DNA of 58,148 bases, filler included, from Jimgerdemannia flammicorona (Eukaryota): assembly GCA_003990765.1 (NCBI GenBank). It is 2 parts of 2 records of this genome, joined end to end, with 100 filler letters (N's around TTAATTAATTAA, not from the genome) between each part and the next. Parts side by side here need not be neighbours in the genome. Positions count along the whole stretch, not along the records: positions 29,126 to 58,148 come from RBNJ01000527.1; 1 more part is not named here. One strand, given 5' to 3'. The position numbers and the translations under genes were made by a program. Numbering within the stretch: position 1 is the first letter of the stretch; every line of letters starts with the position of its first letter. The notes below the pieces were generated by a model. That model made no database searches, was not told the origin of the DNA, and worked only from the letters and a program-made list of their open reading frames with translations. Below are positions 3,022-49,936 of the stretch, in pieces.

Positions 3022-6000
3022 ATGGCAAACCAACAGATTCTAGACCTCACAGCCCAGATAGCAATAATGGCAGCAACCATTACTGCCCTAGCTGAACAGA
3101 CCTGACCTACTAAAAATCTGAGCCTACCTACCTTCAATGGTACTGCACAAGAAGTCCAAAGCTTCATTAGTGTAGTTGATATCAACTTTGAAGCCAACCA
3201 ATGGACAAATGAGTGAGTTGCTAACTGCCTCCTAATAAACAATCAAGACCACACTCTGGAACAACTCTTTGCTACTACCACAGCCTATGTCTGATGAGTT
3301 GTTACATTCTTCCAAGGACCTACTGAAGAATGGTGGTAAACCCTTCCTGAAAAACCCCTCACATGGGATACCCAACATACAGTAGTTGCCCAGAATACAG
3401 CAAACAATATCCGCCCATCCTACAGCTACTGGACTGAAACAACTCATGATTGCTCAATACTATAGCAAAACCATAATTGCTGAATCTCAAGTAAAACTCC
3501 ACAACCTCAAATTTGATATATATGGCAAGAAAGAATTCGAAATCTTCTATACAAAACTCAAGTCACTTCTGAATACCATTGGCCTAGGATATATTGCCAA
3601 TGATGAAGCATGAAATGGTATAAGAGCAGACCATCTATTCAATACAAAATCCAAATAGCTTACTAGAAAAATCAGAGAACAAGGCCACCCAGTTGATTGT
3701 GATCACCAACAATGGTACCTAGCAAGAATCAAGACCATGGTCAAGCAAATCCTAACAGCTGGACCAATTCTGCCCTGAAGACAATTTAATAACAAGGAAA
3801 AGACTTGGACCAAGAAAGAAGAACCTAAGCATGAAGCATCCCAAGCTCCCTTCACATCCACCTCTTAGATACTCAGAAATCATGAACCCACCCAGCTGAG
3901 TATCTTCAAGAAACTCACTGAAGGAGAAAGGAATGAACTTCGAAGAAGCAGAGCATACTTCTATTGCCAAAAGACAGGACATATGGCCAGTGCCTACCCT
4001 AACTGAAAACCCCAAACAGCAACATGAGCAACTGTTACTACTCTACACCACCTCAATAATCTGACTACCAGAATACTGGACTTTGTCAAGTTAAGGCAAA
4101 CTGCCAAGACCCCAACCAAAGGAAGTCAAAAGGCAGCTAGATATAATCTGTATGCAGCTGAAGAAGCTATAGTTTCCAACCAAGAAATCAAGTAAGTCTA
4201 CACAGGAATCAGTATCCAAATCTCTGAAGGATATGTTAGAAGAATATACTATTGCAGCAGCCTAGCATTGAAAGAACTCTCAGTAGAAGGAAGAGTTATT
4301 GATGAAGATTATACAGGTGAAATTGTTGTCCTCATCTGAAACCATAGTTGGACACTCTTCAAGACTCCATTGGTCTCTGCATTGCTCAGATCTTATTCAA
4401 AAAAATCAAGTCAACCCTGACAGTCAAGGAAGTCTCTGAACTACTGCCCACCATCCAAGGATCTAAAGGATTTAGCTCATCAAACAAGGCTCCAGCCCAA
4501 TCTACCATAAACAAAGAAGAATAATTCTACAAGAAAATCAAAGATAGATATATACTAAGTGGCCAATGTCTCCATGGCATTGGAATGTACTCTTTCTGAA
4601 TGATTGATGATTACTTCTCTTATATCAATGAACTGGCTCAAAGAAGAACCAACAGAAGAAAAGCTTCTATAACCGAAATCACCATCATTAGATCAGACAA
4701 ACTGCTTATACTTCAAGCTTTTGTCAATCAAGCATCTGTCAAGATTATGATAGACAGTGGTGCCTCAGGCAACTTTATCAATGAAGAAACAGCCAACAGA
4801 CTCAAGGTCCTGACATCTCTGATATAACAAACTCAAGTAGTTGTTACAGCTGATAGAACCTCTCATGTCATTAGTAAGGAAGTCTACAACCTGCCCTTCT
4901 GAATTAGTGACTACCAAGTACATGTTACCCTTCAGATCATATCACTTCCTGACAACAAGATCATTCTTGGAACTCCATAGTTAAAACAAAAGAACCCTAT
5001 GATCAATTGGGTAAACTATTCTCTAACCATCAAGAAAGGATGCCACAACTTCAAACTATAAGGTGAAAGGGACCCACTCAGCTCTAGTGACCCTAGATCA
5101 AAGATCACTCATATCAATAAGCTACAGCTCAAAAAATTGGCCAAGAAATACCCTCTCTTTGCCATCTCCATCTGTCCATCCAAAGGAGAACCTGAGAACT
5201 CTGAGAAAGACTTTTTCAAAGTTGACAGCTGTGTCAGACCATTATTCTAGAAATTCTGAGACATATTCCCAAAGAAGCTTCCAAAAGGCCTACCTCCTAA
5301 ACGAGTAGTAGACTATGCCATCAAGACTATTCTAGATACTAAGCCAGCCTTCAAGTCAATCTACCACATGTTTCTGAGAGAAATCAATATACTCAAGAAA
5401 GAAATTGACAAACTCCTAGAACAAGGATTCATCAGATCCAGTATATCACCCTATGGTACACCAGTCCTCTTCATTGTAAAGAAAGGAGAAGACCTATAAA
5501 TATGTATTGATTACCATGACCTCAATGAACAGATCATCAAGAACTATTGCCCACTGTCCAGAATCAATGAAATATTCAATAGACTTACCAACCCACAATT
5601 TATGAGCTCTTTTGATCTCCAAAATGGCTAGTGGCAAATTGCTATGAAAGAAGAAGACATCTACAAGACAGCTTTCCAAACCCACTATGGACACTTCAAG
5701 TTTCTGGTTATGCCTTTTAATTTAACTAATGCTCCTGCAACCTTCCAGATACTGATGAATATCATCCTGTACCTATACCTAGACAAATTTATTGTTGTCT
5801 ATATTGATGACATCCTAGTCTTCAGCAAAACCCTGGAGGAACATCTTGAACACCTTGAACTAGTACTACTGAAACTTCAAGAAAACACAAAACTCAGCAA
5901 GTGTGAATTTCTCTTGAAAGAAATTCAATTCCTTGGATATATTGTCACACCAAATAGAATCAAAGTGAACTCTAGCAAAATCTCTACAATCAAGGATTGG

Positions 6001-13800: not shown

Positions 13801-14614
13801 TCTTCATTATCTTCTGAGATTTCTTTGACTATATATATATAGATATACTGGTCTGGTTTTCAAATCAACTTCTTCATTTGGATGGCAGAGATGATATTGT
13901 ATCTAGACTTTGGTTTCTTCTTGGTTTGCTCAGGTTGTAGCTTAATATCTCTTAGAGAGATCATGTTAATTCACTAATTGATGTAAGAACTCTTCTGAGT
14001 GAGTAAGAATTTTCCAAGAATGAGATTGTATTCTGAAAGATATGCAATGTGGAAGGTTTGTCTTATAGTATAGTTTCTAAGTTATAGTAATACATTCTTA
14101 CATATCTTGGAAAGTTTCTGTATTGTTCTATTACTAAAAGTAGCAATGTTTCCTTCTGAGTTTTCTTACATTTTAAGGTGGAATTTGTTGGCTGTTTCTT
14201 GATTGAGATAGTATTTGCTTACTCTACTATTAATTAGAACTTCAATAGTATTTCCTTTAATTTTCTCTTATAGATAGATATATTCTGTATTAGTCTTTTA
14301 CCAGATGACAATTGTTTCTAGAGTAGCTTCTTCTTTCCAATCTTATACTTCTCTATCTTCATTATTGATGTTTTTGATCTCTTCATCTCATTATTCTGAG
14401 ATGGTTGGCTTGTACTTCTTAGATTTGAGAACATATGTAATACATTCTCCTATATGTTCAAAACAGTACATCTTGATTCTATGAGGGCATCATCCTGTGA
14501 AGACATATCTATCAGCAATGTACTGGTACTATTTCTGGTCTTGGTCTTGGGTTTCTTCAATATAGACAATCTTCTGTATCTTGGTCTTCTCCTTGATCTT
14601 GTCAGTATACTTTT

Positions 14615-15040
14615 CTGTTAATCCAAAAGCTTTTTCTCCTCTATCAGAAGGTGACAGTTCACTTATTTCTTTTACTTCAAGGTCATTATATATTACTTTA
14701 ATAATAGCTTGTGTGATTCATTTTCCACAGATGATTTTAATAATCTTTTGTTCAGTATTATATAGTAGGACTTTGATTTTACCTTTGAATCTCTGGTCTA
14801 CAATCCCTCCAGCTATACAGAGTTTCTCTTCTCTGGCCAGACTACTTCTTTCTGCAAGGCAGATGTAGATTCCCTTAGGTACTTCTATTTTAATATCTAT
14901 ACTAATAGTTGCTTACTTATCTGATTCAATGGTTACTTCTATACCTAAGTAGAGGTTATAGCTAGTATTAGATTTATATACCTTGTCTGAAATCTTTGCA
15001 GTAATGTAGAATCTCTTGATCTTGATTTTTTCAGAGGTTT
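14615..15040 (-). pseudogene. dut: dUTPase domain of E2
   Basis: IKIEVPKG...LAERSSLA, GGIVDQRFKGKIKVLL, ITQAII, SDRGEKAFGLT. Confidence 0.8.
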
Positions 15041-18000
15041 CTTTAGAGTCATCTTCATCATAATGATAGTGTAGAAGGAGGATGGTCCTTTGTTTATATT
15101 GGTCTTCTTGTTGTGATATTTGTGAGACATATGTCCTCTCTTCTTGTAGTGGAAATATGCTCCTTTCTTCATAAGTTCTTTCATTTCCTTATTGGACAGT
15201 TTCTTGAATAATCCTAGTAGTTTTGAGGACTCATTTCATAATTTGTACTTCTTTTCAAATTGATATCATTTGTCTCCTCTATTGTTGTTTCTGTTATCTC
15301 TTAATCTTTGGACTATAATGATAGTACATACTCAGATAATAGCTTATTCTAGGTACTATTGCTCATATAGATAATCATAGAGTCATTCTTGCTTACAGAT
15401 TTTTTCTGATAATCATCCAGAGATAGTATCAAAAAAATAAACAGCTTGGGTTCTATTTACTATCTATTCTTAGTGGCTATATTCTGCTCTTATAGTATTC
15501 AGAAGAGTTACTAGTCTTGTGGCAAATACTTTGAGATCTTCTTTTCTATTATTATAGAATTATAGATTCCTGAGCTTGGTTCTAGCTTCAGTGATGTAGA
15601 CAGAGCTACAGAACTACTGAATGATTAGCTTCTTTAATCCTATAGTGGCTGGGTGGACTTTATAGTTAGAGTGATTATCATCTCTATTACTTGTAAGGAT
15701 TTCAGTACAGATTTCTCAAGTGAGAGGATATATTTAAAGATTGTACTACTACTGAGCAGCTGTGTCTATGAAATATGTGGTTATCTTTTTTACTTGTGAG
15801 CTTATAGTTATATAGAGGTCTTCAATCTCATAGTGCGCATTATTTTCAAGGATATTTTCTAAGCTTCAGTTATTATTCCAACTATTGGTATAGTAGTTGA
15901 TATCAACTTATCCTATGAATATTATTATTTAGTCTGCTTTATCTTCAAATGAGGTGAGGCAGAGGTCTTTTGTAGGCTTATTTGTTTTGATGCTGAGATG
16001 GAGAGCTTGAGTGAGTATGGCTATTTAGTCAGTCAATACTACTATCTTATTATCAGCTAATGCCATTCTACTATCTGTATTGTCTGTTTGATAGAATGGT
16101 TGAGGTTCTGCTTCTTCAATTACTATTATATGTCAATTGTAGATTAGGGCTGATTCTTTTATAATATTACTGAGATGGGTGAGTTTGTAGACTGGTGGTT
16201 TTAATGGTAATTATTGAGTCTATTATGATCTTGGGTAGACTTGATGTTCTTGGTGGTAGTTCTATAATAGTACTAGGGTCACCAAGATTAGATTCAGGGA
16301 TTTCTTCAATTATTCTTCTAGGTCTGCAAGGATTCCACTAGGTCTGGCAGCTTGTGGCTCTTATTGCTAAATTATTCTTACTTATGTATAGAGAATTTGA
16401 TAGTAGAAGTGGGATTTCTTTTAATAAGCATAGTATCTCTTATAGCTCAGGAAGGCCTTGGCTTTGTAGTAACAATCATTCAGGAGGTAGTTCAGAAAGT
16501 ATTTAGTTATAGCTTTGATGAATTCTTAAGTATACTTTTCATAGAAGTAACTACTAACTAGATTGTTGAATTTTTCCTTAAGTTCAAGGGTATAGGGAAC
16601 TTCTTTGTTGAGTATAAGAAAGGTGTTAAATACTTATTAGATAGTTTCATTTTTTATTTTTTATTTTTTATAGTCACTCAAACTTTGCCATTTATTATCA
16701 GTCTATCGATATAGATATAGTATCTCCTCTCACTACCCAATCCCCATAGGGGAGCCCTCCCCCACACCTTCATATTTGAAGACCACTTTACTACCCATTA
16801 CTCCAACTCTCTCCCCACTCTGCCTACAGATTTTCTCCACCAAGTGATACCTCTGATCACCCTGCAAACCCCAACCAAGCCACTAGCCTATATATAATAA
16901 TGTCCTCTATTAGCCCTTGCCATCTCAACAGCCATACTTCCAAACTCAGGCTCCTCTCTTTCTTAAAAACAAACAACCAGTGATCTGCCAGCCCCATCCA
17001 AACTACTAAAACTCAGCCTACAGTAAGCCACTTCTTTCCCACCCCCTCTCACCAATCTATCCCTCAAATTCTCCCACTGATCCCACTCTCCATCCCCCCT
17101 ATGCATGATACTCAATCAATCCCCAACTGTAAGTCAAAAGTTACTAAGTACTCTGCACTCTCCTAGCCAATGTTCAGGTGTCTGCACAAATCTCTCTTTC
17201 TGTCCTACATTGTAGTACTCCTTATAATCAAAGCTTTCCCCCTTGATAAGGTGGTCTGAGTAGAAGTTGAGCATGACATTCCTCTGCAGCATGTACCATC
17301 AGACCACCCAGTACTTTGATAGTAACCACCACTATATCTCAGCACTCCAGGCCCAAATCCCATTCTAGTCCCACTCCTCTCTGATACCTACCAGCTGCTA
17401 TCTGCTGGGCCATAGATCCTGTCCTGATCCTCTCTGACACTCAATCCTATTGCTAATGTTAAAGTCAACTAGGGGAATGCCCTCTACTAATACTTGGTCC
17501 CATCTCTATATTGCTGGGTCTCAAGGTATCTCTCCTTTATTTCTCTGCCAGCAAATTCCAATGTGGTGTGCCCCATCTGCTACCCTCCACCAGAAGCCTT
17601 TATACTGCATATGTCTATTGTTCTGAAGTCCAATCAAGACCAGTAAATCTCCTGTAGAGCCTCTTGGCAAGAACCTCATCTTCCAGACCTTCTGCATTAG
17701 GGAAACCCAACTACCCCCTCTCAACTCCACTACTCTCTTCAGCCACCATACTCTCAGACAGTACAGCCTCTTCAGAAAATCTACCAGCTTAAGGTCCCCT
17801 CTAACCATCAGTAAAGATAAGATCTCCCAGCTGATCTGACTCCTTCTCTCAACTCAGATCCACCCCTTAATCAATTTCATCAGTCTCTTCACCCCCAGGC
17901 TGGGAAGTCCAGGTAATAAGCCAAATACCATAGCTTTAGCAGCCATTAGGTGTTCAGAATTGAAATATGCCCTACCAGAGACAAGTGGTATCCTCTCTAG

Positions 18001-22100: not shown

Positions 22101-22784
22101 TTTCAAGTAGTGATATATAGTATATATATTTCTTAGGTAGTATAGCTCCTGGGGTCAATTTAATTTCATGATCAACTTCTTGTATAGGTGGTAGACTAGG
22201 TAGCTTGTCTGGAAAGACATCCTTGAATTCTTCTAGTAGTAACTTGATACTTTCATTGACTGATAGTCTCTTGTCTTGTTTCTTGAGATAGATCATTACA
22301 ATAAAGACATGCATTGTCTTCTTGAGTACTCTCTTGTACTATATAGCTGACAGTATTGCAATCTGGGTCTTGCTTGTAGTCTTGTCTATCTTGATAGTGA
22401 TGTTAGCTCTATCTTAAAGTAAGGTAACTTCATTTTTATACCAATTGATATCTGGGTTGTATTTTATAAGCCAGGGTTTTTCTAAGATCAGATCATGATC
22501 TCCTAGTAATATAACCTTGAAGTCTACTCATTCCCAATATTTCTGGATCTTGATGGATAGTTTGGCAGCAATTGACTCAATGGAGTGTAGAGTGCTGTCT
22601 ATAGTAACTATATTATAATTCTTAGATATAGACTTGATGAGAATCTTGAGGTTTTTGATGAGGTTCTGATTGATGAAGTTTACTGTAGCTCCACTGTTTA
22701 TGAGTACTTGAACTTCTTTTCCTTTGACTAGACCTTTGAAAATAAATATAGCTTGAGCTTGATTTTTACTAAGACTTACTGCTT

Positions 22785-23200
22785 AATTACTACTACCAAA
22801 ATCTTTTTGATCTCATTTGGTTTCAGAGAGTTCTTGGACTTCTGTAATCTTGAGTTGACTGGCTTTTTTTAGGATTATTTGTGCAACTTGATCTCCTTCC
22901 TTAACTGTATAGTCTTGATCCTTCTGATTGATAAGTAGAACTTGAACTTGTCCTTGAAAGTCAGAGTTAATGATACCAGTACCTATATCTAAATGATATT
23001 TGATACTGAGTCCTGATTATGGTGCAATTCTAGCACAATGTCCTCCAGGACATTGAACTGTAATTCCAGTATATATCAGAGTTTGGCCCTTGGCTGGAAT
23101 GGTGACTTGTTTGACAGAGTATAGGTTAAGACCAATGGCTCCTTCTGTTTGATATTAAGAGACTGGGCCTTTAGATGAAGCTTCTTGATCTTGAGCTCAG
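22785..23200 (-). pseudogene. dut: dUTPase domain of E3, directly upstream of the protease
   Basis: AIGLNLYS, TGITVQCPGGHCARIAP*SGLS, GIINSDFQGQVQVLL, GDQVAQII, KDFGSS, then PR VLINSGATVNF. Confidence 0.9.
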
Positions 23201-29025: not shown

Positions 29026-29125
29026 NNNNNNNNNNNNNNNNNNNNNNNNNNNNNNNNNNNNNNNNNNNNTTAATTAATTAANNNNNNNNNNNNNNNNNNN
29101 NNNNNNNNNNNNNNNNNNNNNNNNN
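29026..29125. other. Assembly gap with artificial linker (44 N + TTAATTAATTAA + 44 N)
   Basis: Exactly 100 bp and symmetric, with a six-frame stop spacer at 29070-29081. Confidence 0.95.
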
Positions 29126-29661
29126 TTTTTTTTTTTTTTTTTTTTTTTATAGTCCCTTGGACTCCATCTTTATTACCAGTCTATGAATAAGTATACAATA
29201 TCACTACCCACTATCTGATCCCCATCGGGGGGCCCCTCCCCACCTCTTCATATATAAAGACCACTCTCTCACCAACAACTCCAACTCTCCCACCACTCTG
29301 ACCACAGATTTTCACCACCAAGTAGTGCCTCCGACCCCCCTGCAGCCCCCAACCAAGCCACCAGCCCATCAAGGTATCCTCCATAAGGTACTACCACCAT
29401 GATAACTGGCTCCCCAAGCTCTGTCGCCTCTCCTCCTCAAATACAAATAGCCAGTGACCAGCCAGCCTAACCCAAATAGCCAATGCCCAGCCTAATCCAC
29501 TCTTCCCCTACCCCTCCTATCAATCAATCCCTCAGGTCCTCCCACCTCTCCCGTACATCATCATCCCTACGCCTTACTCCCAAGTGGTCCCCAATGGCCT
29601 GCCAAAAGTCTCCCAACACCTCACACTCCCCTAGCCAATGTTCCGGCATCTGTACAAATTC

Positions 29662-31723
29662 TGTAAGCACACAACCTCCAAGCCACTGGAATTATATGTC
29701 ACCCTCTGAACAAGCCACTGAAATCACACATGACCCTGAATAAATCTGGAAGTCACCTGCTTGATCACGAAGCTGAGTCAAACTGAAGTCACAATGCACA
29801 AAGCTGAGTCAATACAAAGTCACAGAACACAAGATTTATACAAATGGAATCTTACCAATCAGGACTAAATGCATATATACTGAGCACCGAGATGTGTCGA
29901 ATCAGAGAACCAAAACAAACAACAACCACAACTTCCAAACACACAAACATGACCACTGAGATCTACAACCATATCCATGCTAACATTTGGAATGCCATTG
30001 TCAACCGAGCTACACCCCCTCTACCCCTCATGAATATCCATAGCCTAGCACCCCTCTACTTCGTGGAAGCCCAATGGAATGCCCTGAACATGCTTAGTGA
30101 GGCCCACCGAATCGGACAAATCTCAAGCTACTACCAGATCGGCCACCTCCCGGAAGACATGGTCGAACACCACTACAATACAGACATTACCCAGATGTCT
30201 CAACACCAGAAGCTCATCGCCCACAAACATCGAGAACTCTTCTACGAGTACAGTACCATCATCCCCTGCCTCCGAGTTACTACCAGCAAAATGGTTGCTA
30301 CCCTGTCCTATGGCCAAATCGATGACATGATACAAGAACTCAACCAGAAGTACCTCGAGTATGTCGAAATCACAGACAGAACCTTCTCACATCCCAATGA
30401 TCACATCCTGCAAATGCCCCAAGTTGGATACACCATAAAAGATATCTACAATATAATCCACTTTGATGAAGATGAAGCAGAAGACAATGATCTCTCCAAT
30501 GCCAACATGACCTCTAGCCAAGGATCTCTGCCAACCCTGATCACTCCGCCAACCTTACTGATAAACTTACAACAGTTCATAACTGTATACGAGACTTATT
30601 GGGACAATGACCACTGGTACAAATACTAACCTGCATTCATCCTTGATTACTTCAACTACAATGAAGAGACCGGAGAACACAACCTGTACCTTCAGATGAC
30701 CCTTGAGATTGAACCAACCACTCCACCACCTGAGTACGAGTGACATGAACCACAGCTACCAGTATACTATAACCCCACAACTCACAGTGCCATAACCTAT
30801 AGAAGGTACACAGATAGTGAATCCAATGAAAGTGAAGACAATACACCCATCCTTTGCCCACCAACACCTTATCCAGCATATGAGCCAGATGATGCTATCC
30901 TGTGAAATGGAGATGAAGTTCCAATGTACTATTACCTTAGCGAACAAGGAGAAGTAATCCGCGAACCATTATTCCTAGATGACTACTTCATCAGAGATGA
31001 TGCAATCGATGGTGATATCATCAAAGACTATCTAGCAGTGCCTAAACCCATAAATAGCCTAGCAGTTATAGTATAGTTAGATTAGCCTTGTATGACATGA
31101 CTGTGAACTGACTCAGTAGTCAGATGATCTCTTGACATGTCAGATCACACTTGTACTACGTGACTGCATTCTGACTCAACAAGGTACTTAGTGCTATATC
31201 CATATCTAGCATAGTCCAGATAGCCCCTCACTAGTATAAATACCCCCTCCCCCAGACCTCAGAATCTCAGACTTGAACACACACAAGAACATTCCTGAAT
31301 ACTTCCCCACAATATCTCTTCACACAAATACTCCTAGTATAGTAATATCATGAATAGCAAATAAACCTATTCCATAACCCACAAACTACTCTTAAGTAAA
31401 TCCGCTCCCTGTTAGGTCCCACTCCTAACCCCATCACGAAATTTCCTAATTGGGTATTGTCTGCAGTGATATACCAATTCAACTAAGCTGGTCTTAGTTT
31501 CTTGAACTTCCTGAAATATGGAAAATCCTGAATATCTAGAACTAGTCTGAAAAAGGACTTTGGTTGAGACGTCAACCCAATCTTGAAATCAATAAGCGTA
31601 GAGGACATACTCCATATGAAATTGATCTTGACTATAAGAAAACAGTCTTCTAGAACATCTAGAATATCCAGAAAACCTTTCCAGAACTACGTAATGGTTA
31701 CCCTAAAAAGTAGCCCTCTTACA
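29662..31723 (+). mobile_element. Solo LTR (2062 bp) of the E1 family
   Basis: TGTAAG...CTTACA termini; 5-bp TSD aattc/aatcc; the flanks rejoin to continuous LINE sequence; no PBS or internal region. TATAAATA at 31235-31242 and AATAAA at 31360-31365. Confidence 0.95.
29844..30629 (+). CDS. ORFX inside the solo LTR, 261 aa of unknown function; the ancestral frame probably ran to 31076 (up to ~410 aa) with an acidic, Tyr-rich tail
   Basis: Open frame. The TAA at 30627 is CAA in the E1 3' LTR, and two later TGA codons correspond to CAA/TAA (implying CGA) and TGG in the other copies. Similar to post-integrase ORFs of E4 and E5. Confidence 0.75.
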   Translation: MESYQSGLNAYILSTEMCRIREPKQTTTTTSKHTNMTTEIYNHIHANIWNAIVNRATPPLPLMNIHSLAPLYFVEAQWNALNMLSEAHRIGQISSYYQIGHLPEDMVEHHYNTDITQMSQHQKLIAHKHRELFYEYSTIIPCLRVTTSKMVATLSYGQIDDMIQELNQKYLEYVEITDRTFSHPNDHILQMPQVGYTIKDIYNIIHFDEDEAEDNDLSNANMTSSQGSLPTLITPPTLLINLQQFITVYETYWDNDHWYKY

Positions 31724-34454
31724 AATCCCCCTTCTTGTCCTACATTATAGCACTCTTTGCAGTCAAAGCAGCCCCCCTACAACAAGGTGTCCTGAGCAGA
31801 AGTTAAGCATCACATTCCTCCTCAGCACATGCCACCAGACCACCCAGTACTTCGGCAGCATCCAATTTTCACTGTAGCACTCCAGGTCCAAACCTCATAT
31901 CAGTCCTACTCTTCACCAATTCCAACTCCTTGCCAACTACTAGGCTACAGATCCTGGCCTGGTCCCTTTTGGCATTCAATGCCATTACTAATGTTGAACT
32001 CCAGTAAAGGCATGCCTCTCAGAAGAATACCATTTCATCTCCACATTGCTGGGCCCCAAGCCCTCTCCCCCTCATCCCCTCACCAGCGAATACCAATGTG
32101 GTGTACCCCCTCAGCTATCCCCTACCAGAAGCCTTTATATCTCAGTTGCACAGTATTCTGAAGCCCAACTAATGAAAGAAGATCACCAGTCAAGCCTCTT
32201 GGTGATGTCTGCCACTCCCATATCTTCTGCAGCAGGGGAACCCAGCCCCCTCCACGCAACTCCACCACCCTCCTCAGCCCCCATGCCCTCAAGCAGTGTA
32301 GTCTTTTGGGGAAGTCCACCAGCCCAAGACCACCTCTCGCCACTGGTAGGGACAAAGTCTCCCAACCAATCTGACTCCATTGCCAACCCAAATCCATCCC
32401 TTGGCCACCTTCACCAATCTCTTCACTACCCAGGCTAGGAAGTCCAGATGATAAGCCAAATACCACAGCTTCAGCAGCCAGTATATATTCGAAATTGAGA
32501 TTCTTCCTGCCAGAGAGAAGTGTCTACCCCCCCAATCCCGCAGGTCCTCCTCCCAAATTCCAATTCTCTGCTCCCACCACAGCCTGGGCAAAACAGACCC
32601 ATAGACTGACAAATAGATGCCCAAGTACCGCACTGCCTCTCTGGTGGGGACAATTGTTCCAATAACTTCGCTGCCCACCAGGCCATTGCCCAGTACTATT
32701 GTTTCACACTTGTGCCAATTCAGCTTCACCCCAGAGTTCTCCTCATACCACTCTACTGTCTTCTGGAGCTCCTCGACATCTGCAGTCACTCCCAAACCAA
32801 CCACCATATCGTCTGCAAAGGCTCCAACCTTCCAGCCAACTCCATAGATAGAGAGTTCCACAATCCTCCACTGAATTCTGTCCATTAGAGGTTCCAAGGA
32901 AAGAGCATACAAAATGGGGGACAGTGGGTCCCCCTGGGGCACTCCCCTACCCAGAGGGAATGCTACCCCTCGATGTCCATTACATATGAGCACAGCCCTA
33001 CTCCTTTCCAGTAGGCTGACCATCGCCGACCGAAATGGGACCAGAACCCCAATTCTATCTAATACTTTCATCAGCCATACTCACCACACCCAATCGTAAG
33101 CCTTCTCCTGGTCCAAGAAGACAAGATGCCCATCTAGTCCACAGGCTCGAGCACCTTCAATAATTCCATGTACCCAGGCCATACCATCTCTAATAAGCTG
33201 ACCCCCTATGAAGCCCCTCTGCTCAACACCCACAATTTGCTGGGCTACCTTCTGTAGCCTTGCGACCACCACCTTAGTCACCAACTTTCTGTCCATATCT
33301 AGCAACATTATCGGCTGCCAGTTCTTCCAATCCTCTCACCTTCTCTTGTTCTTATAAAGCAGCATCACCAGCCCAAGATCCTACTCCCCCACCCATCTCC
33401 CTGACTGCAATATAGAGTCACACAGTGCTGTCAACTCCCCCAACATACCCAGGACTCCCACCATTCGCTTCCAGAAGTCCCAGGGGAGGCCATCCTCTCC
33501 AGGCGCCATACCCGAGGCTGTTGCAGCAAGAACCTGGTGGATCTTGTCCTCCTTTACAGGTGTCACCAGGTCACCTAGTCCCTCAGCTTATAGTGGGTGC
33601 CAATCTTCTAATATTTGGTCAATGGCTGTAGCATCTGCCCCACCCTCTTCCTCACTCCACAACCCACTCTATCATGCCTTCAGTGTTCCAAGAATGTCCT
33701 GTACACCATGCACTAGTACACTATCCAAGTCGAGTACCCCTTCCCACCACTGCTATACCCTTCTCGCTCGAAGTGTCCTTGTGAGAAACTTGGAAGGCCT
33801 CTCCCCTTCCTCCAGCCCCTGCCAATGAAGCCGTACCACCAGGCCTTACACCCTAAACTCTTCCTCTTCCCGCAGCACCTATTGTAGTTCCCCAATCTCC
33901 ATCTTCACCCTTGTTATTCTCCAATCCTCTTCTCTCTCTACTACTGCCAATCTCACCCACTCCTCCAGGAGCCTAGCTAATCTAGTAGAAGCCCAATGCA
34001 CTTTCTGCCTTTACTGCTTCTCAGCCACTCTGCTAGCCTCACTCCAATACATCCTGGCCATCTCTTTCATCCTCATCCACCGAACCCCAATCGTGGCCCC
34101 TTCCTGCTACCAATTCCCCACCTCCAGCTGAATGTCTTTCACCCACTCCTCCCACCAGGACTCATCATCCAGCAAGGAGGAATTTAGGCACCAATGTCTA
34201 GGCCCATCACCACTTCCCCCAAAACACCCCTGTCCCAAGAGGCCCCAGTGATCTGACCATGGACACCATTCTACCTCTAGCACCTTCCAAATATTGCAGC
34301 CCCAACAGTCAACCATCAGAATCCAGTCAATCCTTGTCCCCAGACCTCCAGCCCAATGCGTATATACTCTCCTGTCCCCCCAGTACCCCCTACCAGCATC
34401 CACCAGTGCTCCTAGCCTTTCAACCTCCTCCCTGTGGGAGAGTTTCAGTACACC

Positions 34455-34920
34455 CTCAACAACAAAACTTAATAATCTCTCTTTCTTCTCTATCTCATCA
34501 ATTAATGGTTAAACCTTCTTTATTGTTATTACAATTAAAACCTTCTTTTTTAGTCATAATATTTTTTTTACAAAAAAAAAAAAAAAAAAAAAAAAGCAAC
34601 AGATAGTGATTCAATCTCATCTGCTACTGCCTTTTTGATTAAGAGTTCTATACTGAAAAGGTCAATCAAAATTTTCTTTATTTTTAGCCTTAACTAAAGC
34701 TTCCTTAAAAAATTTCTTTTTGTTGCATTCTCAGTCAGCAGTTTTTTTATCTAGTTCTTTTTGCATTAAATTGAGAGCAGTCTCAACAACAAAACTTAAT
34801 AATCTCTCTATTTTTTTCATCTCATCAATTAATGGTCAAACCTTCTTTATTATTATTACAATTAAAACATTCTTTTTTGGTCATAATACTTTTTTTATGA
34901 AAAAAAAAAAAAAAAAAAAG
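34455..34920 (+). repeat. Two ~140-bp direct repeats (34455-34596, 34782-34920), each ending in poly(A)
   Basis: ctcaacaacaaaacttaataatctct...tcataata(t/c)ttttttta followed by an A-run occurs twice, 327 bp apart. Confidence 0.85.
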
Positions 34921-35019
34921 CTTCAATAATTAAAGAAATTAAAGAAGTAGAGAGAGTGTGGGGAAGAATAATAAAAAATTTACGGACAAAGCGAAAGTAA
35001 AGAAAACATGATACCCGAG

Positions 35020-35071
35020 TGACGTCAAATGTTCACTTTGTCTGGTTTTGTTGCAGCACGCCCCATATAAG
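35020..35071 (+). promoter_or_regulatory. Putative Pol II promoter: CRE palindrome and TATA-like box
   Basis: TGACGTCA at 35020-35027 and CATATAAG at 35064-35071, followed by an A-rich leader and ATG at 35169; CpGs are retained here. Confidence 0.45.
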
Positions 35072-35168
35072 CCCCCAGCAAACTTTCTCCACACAACAAC
35101 AACAAAACAATCCAAGCACACTCCTCAAAAAGAAACCAACCCTCTCTTTTAAAAAACAAAAAACAAAA

Positions 35169-35730
35169 ATGGAATCTGCCACTACCCGCACCAAGCAAAC
35201 TCTCGCCATCACTGGTAGCGACAGCTACCTCGGCCACTGCATTGCTGCCTAAATGGCCGCGATTGCCACAATGAGTGCCGCATCCACGTCCTGTGCTGTC
35301 ATGAGAAAGACTGCAACAATTTGAGGGACTTGAGCGCAGAGATCATTATAAGTGTTCATTGGTGTTGGGATTACAAGTCGATATGTATCCACGTGACTTT
35401 ACGCCAATTCGTACGACATCATTATTCACAGCGCACGATTTGTATTATGAATAAACTGTTTCTTCTGTTCGTCACAACATAGGTTATGAGCCCCGCTAGC
35501 GACTGAGTGGCTATATGAGCCCGGTCAGCGGATAACTCTACAACAATTGGCATATTTTATTTTTATTTTTTATAATTATTTGATGAGGATGGTAATGTAA
35601 ATGTCCTTAAATAGGAAATAGACTATGAGGACCGCAAGTCCCTCCGCCGTGCCTTCTATGGCTGCGAGTGGGGAATTGACCATCGAGGCTATGGAGAGGG
35701 AGGATGATCGCCATTCTCATGATGTCCACG
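35169..35730 (+). pseudogene. Rossmann-fold NAD(P)-binding (NmrA-like/atypical SDR) gene fragment
   Basis: MESATTRTKQTLAITGSDSYLGHCIAA* (beta1 plus glycine loop), then in a shifted frame RIHVLC...LRDLSAEII, a probable intron, and EIDYEDRKSLRRAFYGCEW (typical DY-x-D-x-x-SL-x-x-A-x-x-G). Confidence 0.6.
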
Positions 35731-35909
35731 TGAGCTTCCAAAACTCAATATTCTGTCGTGATCTGGATGGTGATTTAGTGATTTAGTCGCTAACGGTCCC
35801 TCAGTTCACTTTTCAGAATCAGCGCCGAGTCCAACGACAGGGGGCTCAGGAATCTCCACAAATTCAGGGAGCTTGATAGATTCCATGGTAGGGGGGATCT
35901 GAACCAGAG

Positions 35910-37163
35910 ATGATTTCAATACTATATTCCACTGCTCATGTGAGTCCTGAAGAACACCCCCCACCGAAAAAGAAAACTCTCCCAATTGAGCTGATATGTG
36001 AGATTATCAACCTCATTAACAAGGATATAGATATGAATCCCCTCGACGTGATCGCCAGTGCACTTGTCTCAAAGATATGGTACTCACATGGAGCTAGTTT
36101 GACAATCGCACACAGACATGTCTGTTCCAAACTCGAAATTTTCCCTCCAATTGGCAGTGTTGATATTACACGGCTTCTAAATCTCTTTATTGAATCCAAA
36201 CACGTCCGTGCAGACTTTCACAAGGACATAAGGATTGTTTCCGTCAATTTCACTAAATACGACGATAGCCCCGACAACGAAACACAGTTCAAAGAGCTGA
36301 AAGAATCTCTGCTGACAGTATTTAAATTGGAACCCCCTAATCTTAAAAAGCTTGAATTTTGTTGTCGGGGGAGCGACACACCCAAATTCCTGAGTGTCGA
36401 ATTTCCAATATTAATTAGGCAGATCAAATCCATGCCTCAAATTCACCAGATATTATTTCTCATGCTCAAAAATCCCAAAACATCTGATTTCAAAATACTT
36501 GTAGATGTGCTCTCATTTCAACTGAAAAGTTTGACATTGCATCAGTTTTGTTTGAGGGAGGAGGTTTGCGAAAGTCTTCAAAAATGCACAAAGTTAGAAT
36601 ATATCTCTTTCATTGACATGGCCATCCCATTTGTAAATTCGGTATTAAAATTTTGGCCGGATTTCCGTTACTTCTGCTATATGAACCAAACAAGCGATGA
36701 CACTGGCCTAGCCGCTGCTTTGTGGGTCTTACCTATCAAATGTATTGAGGTCAACCACATTGCAGTTCACTCAAAATCTATCAGCTTGAAGACAATTCTG
36801 TTTCTGTTGTCCTCTTATCCATTGATGACTACGTTGGAACTATCGAACAATCTAATTAACAATACCATTATAAAGACCATATTGCTCTGCAACCGAGGTC
36901 TCAAGGAGATTATATTCCAATACAACGCAATCACAGGTGACATTACGGTTGATGATGTACATGATGGTTGGCCTCAGCTTCGGGAACTATACCTGACTTA
37001 TTCCCCAGATCTTATTCCAAATTTCTTTGAGCTAGTAATCCCGAAATATGTAAGCCTTAATTACGTTACTGTCCTGGAACATTTAATTAGCAACCATTTT
37101 GTTGTGGCAATAATGTTGCAATATGGATTTGTTAAACAATTCCATCATTCCTGGACCCGATAG
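35910..37163 (+). CDS. F-box-like plus RNI-type leucine-rich repeat protein (417 aa, intronless)
   Basis: LPIELICEIINLI...ASALVSKIWY is F-box-like; repeated LxxLxL motifs (NLKKLEF, QLKSLTL, KCTKLEYISF, WPQLRELYL). Confidence 0.8.
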   Translation: MISILYSTAHVSPEEHPPPKKKTLPIELICEIINLINKDIDMNPLDVIASALVSKIWYSHGASLTIAHRHVCSKLEIFPPIGSVDITRLLNLFIESKHVRADFHKDIRIVSVNFTKYDDSPDNETQFKELKESLLTVFKLEPPNLKKLEFCCRGSDTPKFLSVEFPILIRQIKSMPQIHQILFLMLKNPKTSDFKILVDVLSFQLKSLTLHQFCLREEVCESLQKCTKLEYISFIDMAIPFVNSVLKFWPDFRYFCYMNQTSDDTGLAAALWVLPIKCIEVNHIAVHSKSISLKTILFLLSSYPLMTTLELSNNLINNTIIKTILLCNRGLKEIIFQYNAITGDITVDDVHDGWPQLRELYLTYSPDLIPNFFELVIPKYVSLNYVTVLEHLISNHFVVAIMLQYGFVKQFHHSWTR

Positions 37164-37249
37164 CCAGATTAGTAATTTTACAAAACAGAACAATCTCCAG
37201 TTCAATATATAGTTACACATAGCATATACAATAAAGGAATATTCGGTGT

Positions 37250-43174: not shown

Positions 43175-43235
43175 GAGATATTTTTTTATCATATTATATA
43201 TATATAAACTACTTATTTACTTGCAACCTATCTAT

Positions 43236-43713
43236 TGTAATGTAGCGGATGCTTACTCTTGAAAGTACGTCAGATTTCTGTATCTTGAAAACTTGACTGT
43301 TCTGACTCTCGCAGAGTCTCTTGAAGTGGCAGGGGAGGGTGGGTGAGTTCGCAGTGTATCTGCCTGCAGGCTTATTAGTTCCTTTACTATCTCTTTTGCT
43401 TTTGAACTATTTCGATCTGAGGTTTATTCACTCAAAGATACTGGGTTATTTATACAAGTTTGCTAGCTATGAGAGGGTGGCTAAGTAATAAATGAGTCAT
43501 TTGGACTTTGTCGAAACATTTGGACAATGTCTAAACACTATACTAAATCGGGGTATCTGATTTGGATAATGTCTAAAATTTAGACAATGTCTAAGAAATT
43601 AGACAATGTCGAAATCGAGAACTGCTAACTATAATGCTATACTACTTTGGGAATGGGTGTGATCAAGTGTCTATTCCCTATTTCCTTCTTCCAAATCTGG
43701 CTGTACCATCACA
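43236..43713 (-). repeat. E4 3' LTR
   Basis: TGTAA...TCACA; TATAAATA on the minus strand at 43447-43454; direct repeat of 49461-49936. Confidence 0.95.
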
Positions 43714-44214: not shown

Positions 44215-47200
44215 TATTTCTTGAGTCAGTTTCAGTGAATGGTAGTGGGGATTATTGTGCCTGAGGGTTTTCATAGCCAAAAGGTGGTCCCTTTTATATC
44301 TTGCACAAGGTAAGGTCCTTCCCACTTGGGCTCCAGTTTTCGTGACCATGAAGCTTCTACCATGTTCCAATACACCAGGACCTTATCTCCTATCTTGATA
44401 ATCTCCAAGGGCTTGTGGATCTTTTCTGCATTCCTCCATTGTAGTGTCTGTGCCTTGGTTATGTAATCCTCAGCCTTCTTCCTGATTTGGTGTAGTCTCT
44501 ATATTTTTATGTCCATATGTTTCCATACAGCATCTCTATTGGATGATAGGGTTCCTTGAGAACATTCTTCTCCAAACAGCATTTCTCGAGTGGTAAAGTG
44601 GGTGCCTTGTGATCGGATATCCCGGAGAGCAGATAATGCTATTGGCAGATAGTGATCTCAGTTCTCATAGTTATCACAGATCTTGGCGATAACATTCTTG
44701 AGGGTTTTGTTGGTCCTTTCTACTTGTCCATTTTCTTGGGGGTGATAGGCTGTGGTCTGAATGTGCTAGATCTTGTACTTCTTGTAGAGAACCTCAAAGA
44801 GCTGGTTCACGAATTCTGTTCCTCTATCTATAGTTACTTATGTTGGGGTCTTGAACCGGCAGATGATTTCCTTGTGGAAGAAATCGGCGATTGACTGTGC
44901 ATTGGCTTCCTTGAGGGGTCCTGCTTCTATCCACTTCGTAAAAAGGTCTATGATGATAATAATGTATTGGTTACCAGTTAGGGTCAAGGGTAGAGGGCTG
45001 ATTACATCCATTGCTATATGGGCAAATGGTACTGGTTCTATGTGTGCTGATCCTGGGGCTTGATTCCATTGGTCTTGTTTCTGTTTCTGGCATTTGTCGC
45101 ATGTTTTGCTGAATTGTCTGATATCTTCCTCCATCCCTGGCCACCATATTGTTCTTCTTACCTTGTCATGTGTATTCATTCCTCCTAGGTGGCCAAGTTC
45201 ATGTACTGATTTCATCGCTTGCTCCTTCTTGTGTTCTGGTATGACCAGTAGTTTTCCTTTCTTCAGTATTTCTCTGTCGGTTTCGAATTGTTTCCATATC
45301 CTGTTGATAATCATTTGTGTCCATTCTTTCAGATGTTGGGGCATCTTTCACTGTCCCAGGTATGTGATGATTCTGTAGTAGAGCTCCTTATTTATGATTG
45401 ATTTGTTGGTTGGAGGTCTGTGAGAGAGCATCTGCATTGGAATTTGTTCTTCCAGGGCGGTGCATGATGGTTACATCATAGGCTTATAACTTCATTATCC
45501 ATCTGGCATAGATTCCCTTGGGTTGTCCAGTTATCAGTAGCTAGGTGAGAGCTGAGTGGTCCATCTGGATGGTGAAGTGTCTTCCGGCCAGATAGTAGTG
45601 GAACTTTTCCACAGCCCAGATGACTGCAAGGCATTCCAACTTGTAGGACTCATATTCTTTTTCAGTCCCTCAGGTTCCACAGCTAAGATATGCAATGACA
45701 TACTCTTTTTTGTCTTCTTTTTGAGCCAGGACTACTCCTAGTCCCTGTGCACTTGCATCCATCTGAAGGATAAATTCTTGGGTCCAATTGGGTCATCTGA
45801 GGATGGGTGCCTGAGTTAGTCTGATCTTGAGTTCGTCAAATGCTTTTTGTTGTCTGCCAGTCTACTGAAACTTGGTATCCTTCTTGTTGAGTTCATAGAT
45901 TGGACCTGTGATGTTGGAGAATCCTCTAATGAATCTGTAATAGTAGGAGGCAAGTCCCATGAAGGCTTGGGCTTCTGTAACAGTAGTGGGCCTTGGGTAT
46001 ACTGCTACTGCTTGTATTTTGAGAGGGTCTGTGTGTGTTCCATCTCGATTGATAATATAGCCAAGATAGGAGATCTCGATTTCTGCAAACTTGCACTTCT
46101 TGGGTTTGATATAAAGGTCATATTGTCTTAGTCTCTCCATTATCTGCTGTATGTACTGCAGATGTTCCTCAGGTGTCTTGCTGTAGATGATTACATCATC
46201 GATATAGACCATCATCTATCTTCCCATGTCATAGTAGAAGATTTTGTTCATCATTCGCTGAAAGCTTGCTGGTGTATTGCACATTCCGAATGGCATTCGT
46301 AGGTAGATGTAGGTTCCATCTGAAGTGATGAAGGCTGACTTTTCACTTGCCATTTCTGTGAGTCCGATTTGGTGGAATCCTGAGTATAAGTCCAGGGTGC
46401 TGTAGTACTGTGCTTCATCTCCCAGTATTATAAGGATGTCACTGATAAGTGGCAGTGGTTGACAATCCTTCTTGGTAACTGCATTGAGCTTTCTGTAGTC
46501 GACACAGAGCCTTGGGGCAAATTCTCCAGGTTTGTTTCCTTTTTTTGGGGCTAGTATGACTGGTGAAGACCAGAGGCTACTGGCTTCTTTGATGATACCA
46601 GCTTCTTCCATCTGCTTGATTTCTTCTCTGAGCCATTCTCAGGAGGCTGGCAGGACAGGTCTTGCCTTCTGGTAAATTGGTTCAGTGTCTCCAGTATCTA
46701 TCTCATAATAGTAGTGTGGGGTCTTTCCCTTGATATTCTTGAAATCCGTGGCAAGGACATCCTCGAATTTGTGGAGTATTTTCTTGAGTTCCTCCTTGAG
46801 TGGGAATTTGTCTCCAATGGTATAACTGTGCTTGCTCGTGTTTTCCTCCTTCTTATGCTTGAGTTTAGTGATCTTGGTGCTGGCAAATACTCCTCTTCCT
46901 GTGGATCCGAATCCTTTCTTTCCTCTTTTCATTTCCTCCAGATTCTTGACTTCTATGATCCTTGGCTGTATGATTGAGAAGATCAACATCTGTGCCAATT
47001 GGTCCTTCTTCTTGACTGGGAATGGAATTGTAGGATTGTGGTTCCTAGCAATGAGTAGAATTTCTCCAGTATAGTCTGAATCAATGACTCCTCCTTCGAT
47101 TGTGATTTCACTTCTAGCCAGGCTGCTTCTTGTCTTGAGAATCCTGACATGATTCTTTGAGATGGTCATCTCTAGTCCAGTTGTGAGTAGGGTGGTTGTC

Positions 47201-49348
47201 TGGGGTTCAAGTACAGTATCTTCCACTGTAGCGATGTCCATTCTGGCTGTGTTTTCTGACTTGTATTCTGGCAAGACTGTATCAGGGTGGATCTTTCGAA
47301 TCTTGACCTTGATTTCTTCTTCATCATCACTGTCCTCTAGGAGGGCTGGTGGTTCATCATCTTCCTCCTTCTCTTCTTCCCTGATCTGTTTTTCGAGAGC
47401 TTCCTGGCTTCTTTTCTGGTAGATCTTCCTGGTTCTGATGGTGCACTGGTAGCAATCATTGATATGCTCCATACAGTACATCTTGATTCCATGAGGACAG
47501 ACTCCTTGTGGGGCATAACCTTCTGTGATCTTCTTGCACCATTCTTCTTCACTCATCTATCCAACTTTCTTCTTCTTTGGGGTAGTCACTATATAAGCTT
47601 CCTCTTGCTTACTCTCTTCTTCCTCCATATCGGGCAGGACTCCTTTGTTGATGTTGATGGGAATTTGTATCTTCTGTCCCCAGTAGATGATCTGCATCTT
47701 CTGAGCATTGAGATCGATTACTGCCTTGGCTTTGTGAAGCCATTGATTGCTGATGAGGATGTCATAGTTGGTGGCATTGGTTACGATTACATCTACTGGG
47801 ATTGTTGCTCCTCCAATCTTGATGGGAACATCTTGGATCTTTCCCAGAGGTGTGGCTCTTGTGCTATCAGCTGTGATGAATACTAGCTTAGTTGCTTCTT
47901 CCACATCCCAATCTAGGCAGTCTGCTGCCTTCTTACTAAGGAGACATCCTCCTGCTCCTGTGTCAATGATGGCTTTAAAGACTTGATCCTCAATTTGGCA
48001 TATTGCATAAGCAGAGGTTTTGCGATTGTCCTCACTTTCTTCTCCTGAGTCCTCTTGAACATTATTGGCCTCAGTTATCTTCCATCCTTGTTCCTTGGTT
48101 GTTTTGGCAAGTCCAAACCTCATTTGCTGTCTGAATGTTGGGATTTCTGCGAGCTGACCAAAGGTTGCATTGACCTTTTATTGACTGAGATCCTTGAAGA
48201 TATCATACTTGAAGGTCTTGGTCTTGCGAAGCTTCTTTTCTTTTTCTCCTTCACTGGCTGGAGTGGTTCCTCAGATGATATCTTGAACTGCTTGCTCCAG
48301 CTTGATATCCTGGTCCATCTCTTCAGCTTGGCTTTCTGTGTCAGTTTCCATCTGCTTTTCCACTGGGTTCTTCTTGGGTCTTCCTGGTGGTCTCTTGTAG
48401 GGTTCTTTGCAAGCATCCTTCTTGGTGGTCTGAGCAGGATAGGCCTCCCATTCCTCTTCAAAGGTGATTGTATTGGCCTGCTCCTTGTTTTGTGTGGCAT
48501 TGCTTAGTTGAGCCTTGCATTTGGTTTCACTCATACATTCATAGGAGTAGTGGTCTTCTTCTCTGCAGCTGTAGCAGGTACCTTTCTTCTTGTCTGAGGT
48601 GGTGGTAAACTTCTGAACAGGGTGGCAATCTCTTCCTCTGATTTCCTTTACCATATCTCCCAGGTGGGCGGTCATTTCAGCAAACCTTTTGGTGAGTTCC
48701 TCCATAGGGTCACTGTTCTTTTGCTGCTCTGTAGCTTTTGACTGAGGTGTGTTTCAATTGATCATTGTGGTGGGGATCATACTGGTTGTCTCGGGTACCT
48801 CGATTCTGACTCCTGTAACTCTCTCCATTATATAGTCTCATGGATGTCTGGCTATCCAGTATCGCTGAGCATAGGTGACCTTTTGTGGCAGATCCAGAAT
48901 CACTGGTGATGAGCAGATGGCCATGGCTATTTCTAGATAGACTCCTTTCATGAAGGTTACTTCGGCTACTTGATCTCGGATAGTAGCAGCATAATCTGCA
49001 AGGATTATCTGATATTGAATTCTGGTATAGAATGTGTTTGGATTCTCACTCATTCCTTGGCACGTTGTGTTGAGCTGATCCTTCAGGGCTTGCTTGATCT
49101 CGTCTGTGTAATATGTGTTTCGGAGCCAGGTCTTCTGTGCCATCAGTATGGCATCGGCATCATTTCCTGCATGGGTTGCGGCTGTGAATGCTGCTCTGGC
49201 AGGGCCTCATAGGCTGAAGGGCATGAGGCTACTTGCTATGCTGCTGTCAGAGTCCTTACAGCAGCATACTGCTCAAAATCGTCAATGAAGGTGATGATTG
49301 ATTCATCTGAGGTATATCCATGGAATACTAGTGGTCTCATATCCATCT
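44215..49348 (-). pseudogene. gag-pol: E4 gag-pol, with nonsense lesions
   Basis: CYSCREEDHYSYEC; IIDTGAGG; ORFs 47557-48123, 46639-47556, 46216-46611 and 45862-46215 share one frame, separated by single TAG/TGA codons; YIDD; IN HHCC and core in 44838-45344; WEGPY ~44320. Confidence 0.93.
46880..47315 (-). pseudogene. dut: dUTPase domain of E4, between PR and RT
   Basis: TARMDI, TGLEMTI, TRSSLA, GGVIDSDYTGEI, DQLAQMLI, RGKKGFGSTG. Confidence 0.95.
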
Positions 49349-49460
49349 TGTCTGGGTATTGGGGCTCAGTTTGTATGGTTGTTCAGATAGTGGTAGTTGT
49401 TTATTGTTTAGCTTGAAAGTGAGGAATTCGTCTTGAATCACCAGCCAATGGGCACCAAGT

Positions 49461-49936
49461 TGTAACGTAGTGGATGCTTACTCTTGAAAGTACATCGGAT
49501 TTCTGTATCTTGAAAACTTGACCATTCTGACTCTCGCAGAGTCTCTTGAAGTTGTAGGAGAGGGTGGGTGAGTTCGAAGTGTATCTGCCTGCAGGCTTAC
49601 TAGTTACTTTGCTATCTCTTTGCTTTGAACTATTTCGATCTAAGGTTTATTCACTCAAAGATACTGGGTTATTTATACAAGTTTGCTAGCTATGAGAGGG
49701 TGGCTAAGTAATAAATGAGTTATTTGGACTTTGTCGAAACATTTGGACAATATCTAAATGCTATACTAAATTGAGGTATTCAATTTGGATAATGTCTAAA
49801 ATTTAGATAATGTCTAAGGATTTAGATAATGTCAAAATCGAGGACTGCTATCTATAAGGCTATACTACTTTGGGACTGGGTGCGATCAAGTATCTATTCC
49901 CTATTTCCTTCTTCCAAATTTGGCTGTACCATCATA
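49461..49936 (-). repeat. E4 5' LTR
   Basis: Direct repeat of 43236-43713, adjacent to the PBS. Confidence 0.95.

Follow-up and report, generated by a model that had tools for sequence, protein, structure and literature searches.

An unnamed zinc-type mini-domain next to the dUTPase of Ty3/gypsy retrotransposons in Jimgerdemannia flammicorona

Three Ty3/gypsy retrotransposons in a stretch of the Jimgerdemannia flammicorona genome (assembly GCA_003990765.1) encode, next to the dUTPase of their Pol polyprotein, a short segment that contains Cys and His residues. An initial annotation, made by a model from the letters of this stretch, described the segment as a mobile zinc-binding module. The locus raises the question of whether such a domain exists, whether it already has a name, and whether it has moved between lineages. 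The stretch, 58,148 nucleotides in length and referred to below as the window, joins parts of two records (positions 29,126 to 58,148 come from RBNJ01000527.1) and contains a cluster of decayed long terminal repeat (LTR) retrotransposons of the Ty3/gypsy type, E1 to E5. We conclude that the module is a genuine zinc-type mini-domain, conserved and as yet without a name, of the same general kind as the known accessory zinc fingers beside retroelement dUTPases, and that shuffling is possible but unneeded. We consider it reasonably probable that the module is a structural zinc domain serving as a dUTPase adaptor in the Pol of one dUTPase-carrying Ty3/gypsy group.

The module and its ligand signature

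Element E4 contains a 305-amino-acid (aa) open frame that starts M-S-E-E-E-W-C and comprises the module, an acidic linker, the dUTPase and the start of the reverse transcriptase (RT). The features of E4 that concern the module are as follows.

47560..48177, minus strand: aspartic protease (PR), active site D-T-G-A (RVP_2 E 1.4e-9)
47557..47559, minus strand: TAG stop separating PR from the module
47413..47556, minus strand: module, residues 1-48 of the 305-aa frame (score 40.2, independent E 5e-14, with a local profile hidden Markov model (HMM) of which E4 is itself a row)
47499-47497 (C20) to 47445-47443 (C38), minus strand: putative zinc ligands C20, H22, C35 and C38
47538-47536 (C7), 47475-47473 (C28) and 47466-47464 (H31), minus strand: extra residues specific to the E4 subtype
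46897..47280, minus strand: dUTPase (PF00692 E 2.6e-23), about 48 aa past the module, with the acidic linker between

Because a related database protein, P0037 (77% identity to the E4 frame), has Trp at the position of the E4 TAG (R-W-M-S-E-E-E-W), we conclude that the PR and module of E4 were formerly one reading frame. The TAG, which precedes the ATG of the module frame and so resembles a stop/start junction, is on this alignment a decayed Trp codon.

The corresponding regions of E1, E2 and E3 are as follows.

4103..4485, plus strand: E1 dUTPase, preceding the module and frameshifted near 4363-4372
4516..4626, plus strand: E1 module, decayed, with two stops and Tyr (TAC, TAT) in the last two ligand positions
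4729..5010, plus strand: E1 PR, I-D-S-G-A-S, downstream of the module
14616..15176, minus strand: E2 dUTPase, upstream of the module
14415..14519, minus strand: E2 module, decayed, with two stops and Tyr (TAT) in the last ligand position
22441..23151, minus strand: E3 dUTPase (23151-22789) followed by PR (22722-22441), with about 22 aa between

All module copies in the window belong to dead elements. The three peptides listed in the initial annotation are present (E4, minus strand, 47556-47443; E2, minus strand, 14519-14415; E1, plus strand, 4516-4626), and the domain orders that it gave, PR-module-dUTPase in E4 and dUTPase-module-PR in E1 and E2, are those that we find; tblastn did not detect the PR of E2, which rests on a remnant near 14249 recognized by eye. 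The complete orders are gag CCHC, PR, module, dUTPase, RT, RNase H and integrase in E4; gag CCHC remnant, dUTPase, module, PR and RT in E1; and dUTPase, module, PR remnant and RT in E2. E3 was correctly described as having a dUTPase without the module, which we did not find in the 22-aa gap between its dUTPase and PR, and E5 is truncated by the window edge ahead of the PR/dUTPase region. The suggestion that the Tyr codons of the decayed copies are products of G-to-A changes also fits, as E1 reads TAC and TAT at the last two ligands and E2 reads TAT at the last, where E4 has TGC.

The E4 and E2 modules share 46% identity over 35 aa (tblastn inside the window, E 3.9e-6). A loose core pattern, C-x-H-[GRKN]-[IVL]-x-[IVMLF]-[YF], matched the six-frame translation of the window three times, each time at the homologous site of E4, E1 or E2; in 200 mononucleotide shuffles there was no match in 173, one match in 26 and three matches in 1. 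A strict pattern that includes the C-x2-C tail had a single match in the window, at the E4 module, and none in 200 shuffles.

Using the E4 frame, we recovered 26 dUTPase-bearing polyproteins, six of which carry a related motif in the spacer between PR and dUTPase. A profile of seven module stretches (A1) was then searched against 1.84 billion representative proteins at E<=0.001, and the 36 proteins that matched were divided by inspection and a Pfam scan into 31 members, 3 RanBP2-finger proteins and 2 low-complexity proteins. We aligned 27 module rows in E4 numbering (A2; the alignment A3 places the main type of the module first). C20, C35 and C38 are invariant (27/27), whereas position 22 holds either His (23 rows) or Cys (4 rows). 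The module consensus reads W-x3-F-[KR]-K-x2-C-P-H-G-[IV]-R-F-Y-S-P-E-D-x-C-x2-C, and the ligand spacing is C-x-H-x12-C-x2-C in E4 and C-x-H-x10-C-x2-C in the main type.

The 31 members, with four kept positions, bear out the claim that the segment is a conserved Cys/His-bearing unit, but the ligand set first assigned to it was wrong. The conserved set is C-x-H...C-x2-C: in the larger alignment C20, H22 (His or Cys), C35 and C38 are conserved, whereas C28 and H31 belong to a subtype. In that subtype (E4, E1 and E2) the loop reads Y-C-x-E-H-x-N-D. The Y-C-x-E-H of the initial consensus is restricted to E4, E1, E2, P0037 and P0055, and its Y-C-x-E part occurs also in a variant that has C-x2-C as its first knuckle (P0004, P0005 and P0058). 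C7, C28 and H31 are all retained in P0037, and C28 and H31, without C7, in P0055 and E2. A second zinc site built from these residues in the E4 subtype was considered and set aside, as just three candidate ligands could be named.

The 36 database proteins hold 37 instances of the module: 26 have C-H-C-C, 1 has C-C-C-C, and another 6, which belong to the C-x2-C...C-x-C variant, keep every ligand; one ligand is lost in 3, and 1 is partial. These counts describe the family and are no test of it, because the HMM was built from 27 of the same rows. Zinc binding by the module is highly probable. One zinc would be held by the Cys and His of a hairpin knuckle together with a Cys-x2-Cys that opens a C-terminal helix, in a mini-domain of about 40 residues (the "CHCC module") that is built into Pol in the linker between PR and dUTPase, whichever enzyme comes first. 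The two halves of the module differ in charge: the N-terminal half is net positive in 25 of the 27 rows (mean +2.8), with a Phe conserved in 19 of the 27, and the C-terminal half is net negative in 25 of the 27. Two or three tandem copies lie within one spacer in P0029, P0038, P0039, P0060 and P0063.

Ten proteins were looked up; all come from environmental assemblies, and their annotation goes no further than "dUTPase". Module residues 1-60 had no match among longer proteins in a word-index search, and a query with P0055 for full-length elements of the dUTPase-module-PR order returned one protein, P0064, which is a PR-dUTPase protein without the module. Metagenome DNA scanned with a 5-row alignment yielded 61 pattern matches and three confirmed loci (L001 to L003), among which open reading frame inspection left L002 as the sole true module; L001 and L003 were rejected as chance matches.

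Other Cys/His-rich sequences were seen in the same part of Pol. In P0008 (about 880-1100) and P0009 (about 845-1025), a different finger-like motif, C-x4-C-x8-9-H-x2-C with basic residues after it, is repeated four or five times within very long PR-dUTPase spacers (about 560-630 aa), with no Pfam match at E<=0.001; it could represent another unnamed finger of that spacer. Further Cys/His-rich motifs, 50-150 aa upstream of the dUTPase, occur in P0024 (240-270, C-x-C-x6-H-x8-C-x2-C), P0016 and P0020, and escape detection by the module HMM.

Comparison with named zinc domains

The initial annotation had set the module apart from the gag CCHC knuckle and from the integrase HHCC finger, and the module matches neither set of models. 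PF00098 (zf-CCHC; C-x2-C-x4-H-x4-C), from which the module also differs in spacing, was absent from the matches of the 27 members at E<=1, and PF17921 and PF09337 (H-x3-7-H-x23-32-C-x2-C) gave no match to the module. E4 has genuine copies of both fingers elsewhere, with the CCHC at about 48.5 kb.

48274..49206, minus strand: E4 gag remnants with CCHC knuckle (zf-CCHC 19.2 bits, slightly below the cut-off of 20.8)
44841..45347, minus strand: E4 integrase, HHCC finger and beginning of the core (Integrase_H2C2 E 6.4e-18)

No Pfam model reached its cut-off in any of the 27 members. One of the two best sub-threshold models was zf-ChsH2, a rubredoxin-like ribbon (4/27, best E 0.0016). The other, zf-C5HC2 (PF02928), was discarded, as it matched E4 only (1/27) with 18.1 and 17.7 bits, under its gathering cut-off of 22. 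A sequence profile search of the PDB returned one chance match, to a plant defensin (E 0.22), and the ESM Atlas gave no usable match to queries of the E4 type or the main type.

The module might instead be a diverged zinc ribbon of the RanBP2/NZF type (PF00641), which would bind single-stranded RNA or ubiquitin. Three of the 36 profile matches are RanBP2-finger proteins (P0033, P0047 and P0056; PF00641 E 1e-25 to 1e-27), the two knuckles are spaced alike (about 10-11 residues apart), and hhalign places them in register with those of a six-finger RanBP2 protein. The probability that hhalign gives to this alignment is 17%, however, and PF00641 matches 0 of the 27 members at E<=1. The RanBP2 family signature includes an invariant Trp-x-Cys and an Asn, both of which are absent from the module, and the first knuckle of the module is C-x-H. 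A zinc ribbon, with its two beta-hairpin knuckles, is not known to have a helix after the second knuckle, where both models of the module described below predict one. We therefore regard a RanBP2-type origin as very improbable.

AlphaFold2 models of the module were obtained from both alignments, with a mean predicted local distance difference test (pLDDT) of 77.9 (A2, E4 first) and 73.8 (A3, main type first). According to the DSSP strings, both models open with a helix, go on to a bridge pair that surrounds the C-x-H knuckle, and then form a second helix from C-x2-C onwards. In these models the fold may be treble-clef-like, with two ligands from the knuckle and two from the helix start, a call that we hold to be evenly balanced. 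A prediction of the complex of the E4 module, the E4 dUTPase and zinc, run without alignment or controls, returned a score of 0.00 and a mark of 0.34, which speaks neither for nor against an association.

The models bear also on the possibility that there is no domain at all, just a variable linker with chance Cys and His residues. The module is absent from many close relatives, and the linkers around it range from 30 to about 600 aa, as might be expected of such a linker. Against this stand the 31 members that a blind search recovered and that keep four positions, and the pLDDT above 70 in two models, and we find the chance-linker explanation barely credible.

Place in Pol and history of the module

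In all nine cases in which both flanks are visible (E4, E1, E2, P0003, P0004, P0005, P0008, P0029 and P0057), the module lies between PR and dUTPase, and it occurs nowhere else in Pol within the window. The order of module then dUTPase is seen in many proteins outside the window, and the reverse, dUTPase then module, in P0055, whose module is of the E4 type (55% identity). A further context was found in L002 (116-1291, plus strand), in which an integrase chromodomain (PF00385, E 9.3e-11) is followed by one stop, about 370 aa and then an in-frame module of the main type at the contig end. L002 would be a third context, in which the module may possibly lie ahead of a dUTPase that follows the integrase at the C-terminus.

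A module in this position could serve the protease rather than the dUTPase, as a zinc-stabilized flank that would put cleavage sites in place or hold back PR dimerization, with the dUTPase a mere neighbour. The module is indeed 29-41 aa from PR, on either side, in E4, E1, P0004, P0005 and P0058, and the C-x2-C variant is always on the PR side of the linker. However, the distance from PR is 100-564 aa in most PR-first members (including P0003, P0008, P0057, P0042 and P0029), and it is the dUTPase to which the module is near in 8 of the 11 listed cases in which it comes before that enzyme, ending 27-64 aa away, as it does in E4. In L002 the module shares a frame with the chromodomain ahead of it, and no PR is visible. 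We consider a role as protease flank to be quite unlikely.

The module was first proposed to be mobile and shuffled between lineages. To place the elements, we used an RT tree of 24 rows, from which proteins with an RT match shorter than 180 aa were left out. This tree contains a PR-first group (E5, E4, P0002, P0005, P0057, P0003, P0008, P0007 and P0009; support of 87 in the Shimodaira-Hasegawa-like approximate likelihood ratio test, SH-aLRT) and a dUTPase-first clade of E1, E2 and E3 (SH-aLRT 96). A clade of PR-dUTPase proteins without the module (SH-aLRT 96) joins the dUTPase-first clade with a support of 80, and presence of the module amounts to four state changes on the tree. Placing both module-bearing groups in one clade costs 1.6 log-likelihood units and is not rejected by the approximately unbiased test (p-AU 0.23). 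Because the position of the module is constant (9/9) and a tree with one clade is not rejected, one gain, two losses and one rearrangement of PR and dUTPase suffice, and shuffling between lineages is not required.

The alternative is that the module is a mobile cassette that was moved by recombination between unrelated gypsy lineages of the same genome. The similarities of module and RT are at odds. The E4 module shares 55% identity with that of P0055, 46% with that of E2 and 12-35% with the other 25 rows of A2, and is nearer E1, E2 and P0055 than the other PR-first members, whereas the E4 RT shows the opposite, with 51% identity to P0005 and 37-38% to E1. The position of the dUTPase-first clade beside a module-less clade, with the four state changes that follow on the tree, points the same way. 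That join, however, is supported at 80 only. The Y-C-x-E motif is shared with P0004 and P0005, and P0005, the one of these two that is represented in the tree, branches outside the main-type group within the PR-first clade; for these reasons the E4-like form may be ancestral. The conflict between module and RT could thus reflect either transfer or an ancestral E4-like form from which the main type was derived. A reliable tree is beyond the reach of a 35-aa module, and the window holds no copy at another site of Pol, as noted. Taking these points together, we judge the mobile cassette to be rather unlikely.

The dUTPase tree is too poorly resolved (15 of 28 inner branches below 80, no cellular outgroup) to speak for or against a common acquisition of the enzyme across the two orders. 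Conversion of PR-module-dUTPase to dUTPase-module-PR is impossible by one simple translocation. One idea, consistent with the tandem copies, is that a dUTPase flanked on each side by a module was moved as a cassette, which then lost one copy; no element with this arrangement was seen among those examined.

The remaining features of E4 identify the element to which the module belongs.

49460..49914, minus strand: E4 5' LTR, 92% identity to the 3' LTR
43235..43691, minus strand: E4 3' LTR
45865..46638, minus strand: E4 RT, one in-frame stop

With LTRs, a gag CCHC knuckle, retropepsin, dUTPase, RT, RNase H and an HHCC integrase, E4 is a dUTPase-carrying Ty3/gypsy element, and its relatives P0002-P0009 and P0057 have the same set of features. 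The LTR pair of E4 differs by 36 substitutions, 28 of which are transitions, in both directions. The coding strand of each element in the window is A-rich (AT skew +0.12 to +0.21 for E1 on the plus strand, and -0.10 to -0.31 for the minus-strand elements). Positions 24000-37200 have a higher G+C content (0.41-0.52) and open frames of 197-423 aa, and runs of N occupy 29026-29069 and 29082-29125.

A possible role beside the dUTPase

After processing of the polyprotein, the module would remain on the dUTPase as an adaptor, and its basic, aromatic N-terminal half would hold the enzyme on RNA or complementary DNA (cDNA), or on a partner protein, inside the particle. We propose an adaptor because the N-terminal half is basic and aromatic, because the module occurs in tandem arrays, because the dUTPase is its constant neighbour, and because there are two precedents, in Mason-Pfizer monkey virus (M-PMV) and in the Juno retrotransposons. 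Tandem copies are usual for binding fingers. The tethering function itself is a tentative suggestion that may well prove wrong.

In the first precedent, the nucleocapsid (NC)-dUTPase fusion of M-PMV binds an oligonucleotide (PMC1802613). There, as in the fungal elements, a zinc-finger module is flexibly linked to a retroelement dUTPase, and the finger part is described as binding nucleic acid and bringing the dUTPase to the replication complex. The betaretroviral fingers differ in that they are gag CCHC fingers (C-x2-C-x4-H-x4-C) joined to the dUTPase through a frameshift (PMC1802613), whereas the fungal elements have a separate gag CCHC and carry an extra C-x-H...C-x2-C module inside Pol, on either side of the dUTPase. 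In the second precedent, the Juno LTR retrotransposons of bdelloid rotifers, PR-dUTPase is followed by "an extra Zn knuckle" (PMC5408684). Juno is thus similar in having an accessory zinc knuckle adjoining the dUTPase between PR and RT of an LTR retrotransposon. The host is an animal, however, and the wording suggests an ordinary knuckle, the comparison being one of description and not of sequence.

That the place of the dUTPase varies among fungal gypsy families is already published: depending on the family, PosPlaTy3-3, -4 and -5 of Postia placenta have it at the N-terminal end of Pol, at the C-terminal end, or in between PR and RT (PMC2864245). The dUTPase-carrying chromoviruses of Postia, Phanerochaete and Tuber (Tmt1) resemble the elements described here in this variable placement, but the accessible text mentions no zinc module by the dUTPase, and the word "zinc" occurs 0 times in it (PMC2864245). 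We did not find a description of the module in the accessible parts of the literature on dUTPase-bearing LTR retrotransposons, including PMC2864245, PMC2774666, PMC5408684 and an Entomophthora preprint; the supplements of PMC2864245, and Novikova and Blinov (2008), may bear on this claim.

A bolder version of the tether is that CHCC is a portable nucleic-acid-binding zinc domain that evolved independently of the gag NC, travels with the dUTPase and has recombined between distant lineages. It would hold the dUTPase on the reverse-transcription complex, and would do so before PR, after PR and perhaps, as in L002, after the integrase chromodomain. We think this version unlikely.

Several observations weigh against the adaptor that we favour. 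The conserved tip of the hairpin, S-P-E-D-E, is acidic, which is unusual for a nucleic-acid-binding surface. The module is not always near the dUTPase, because in the C-x2-C variant (P0004, P0005 and P0058) 160-170 aa separate it from the dUTPase that follows, whereas PR ends about 30 aa ahead of it. It is also dispensable, because many close dUTPase-bearing relatives lack it; the dUTPase is kept without the module in P0002, P0010, P0011, P0018, P0019, P0023, P0025, P0026, P0064 and E3. The acidic tip and this dispensability count against a simple nucleic-acid clamp. The fold searches, finally, were uninterpretable: the best Z was 2.9 for the E4 model (VIA-align) and none reached 2 for the main-type model, and Foldseek at E<=10 returned 0 rows for the former and 1 row, at E 9.6, for the latter.

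The value of the finding is modest, as no copy in the window is still alive, close relatives do without the module, and its function is inferred. To our knowledge, retroelement polyproteins have few accessory domains, most of them already catalogued, and an unnamed conserved zinc domain implies that the catalogue does not yet fully cover early-diverging fungi. The long, otherwise blank spacers between PR and dUTPase would be better annotated with a profile of the module, and the module offers a handle on why retroelements carry a dUTPase and on how that enzyme stays at the site of cDNA synthesis.

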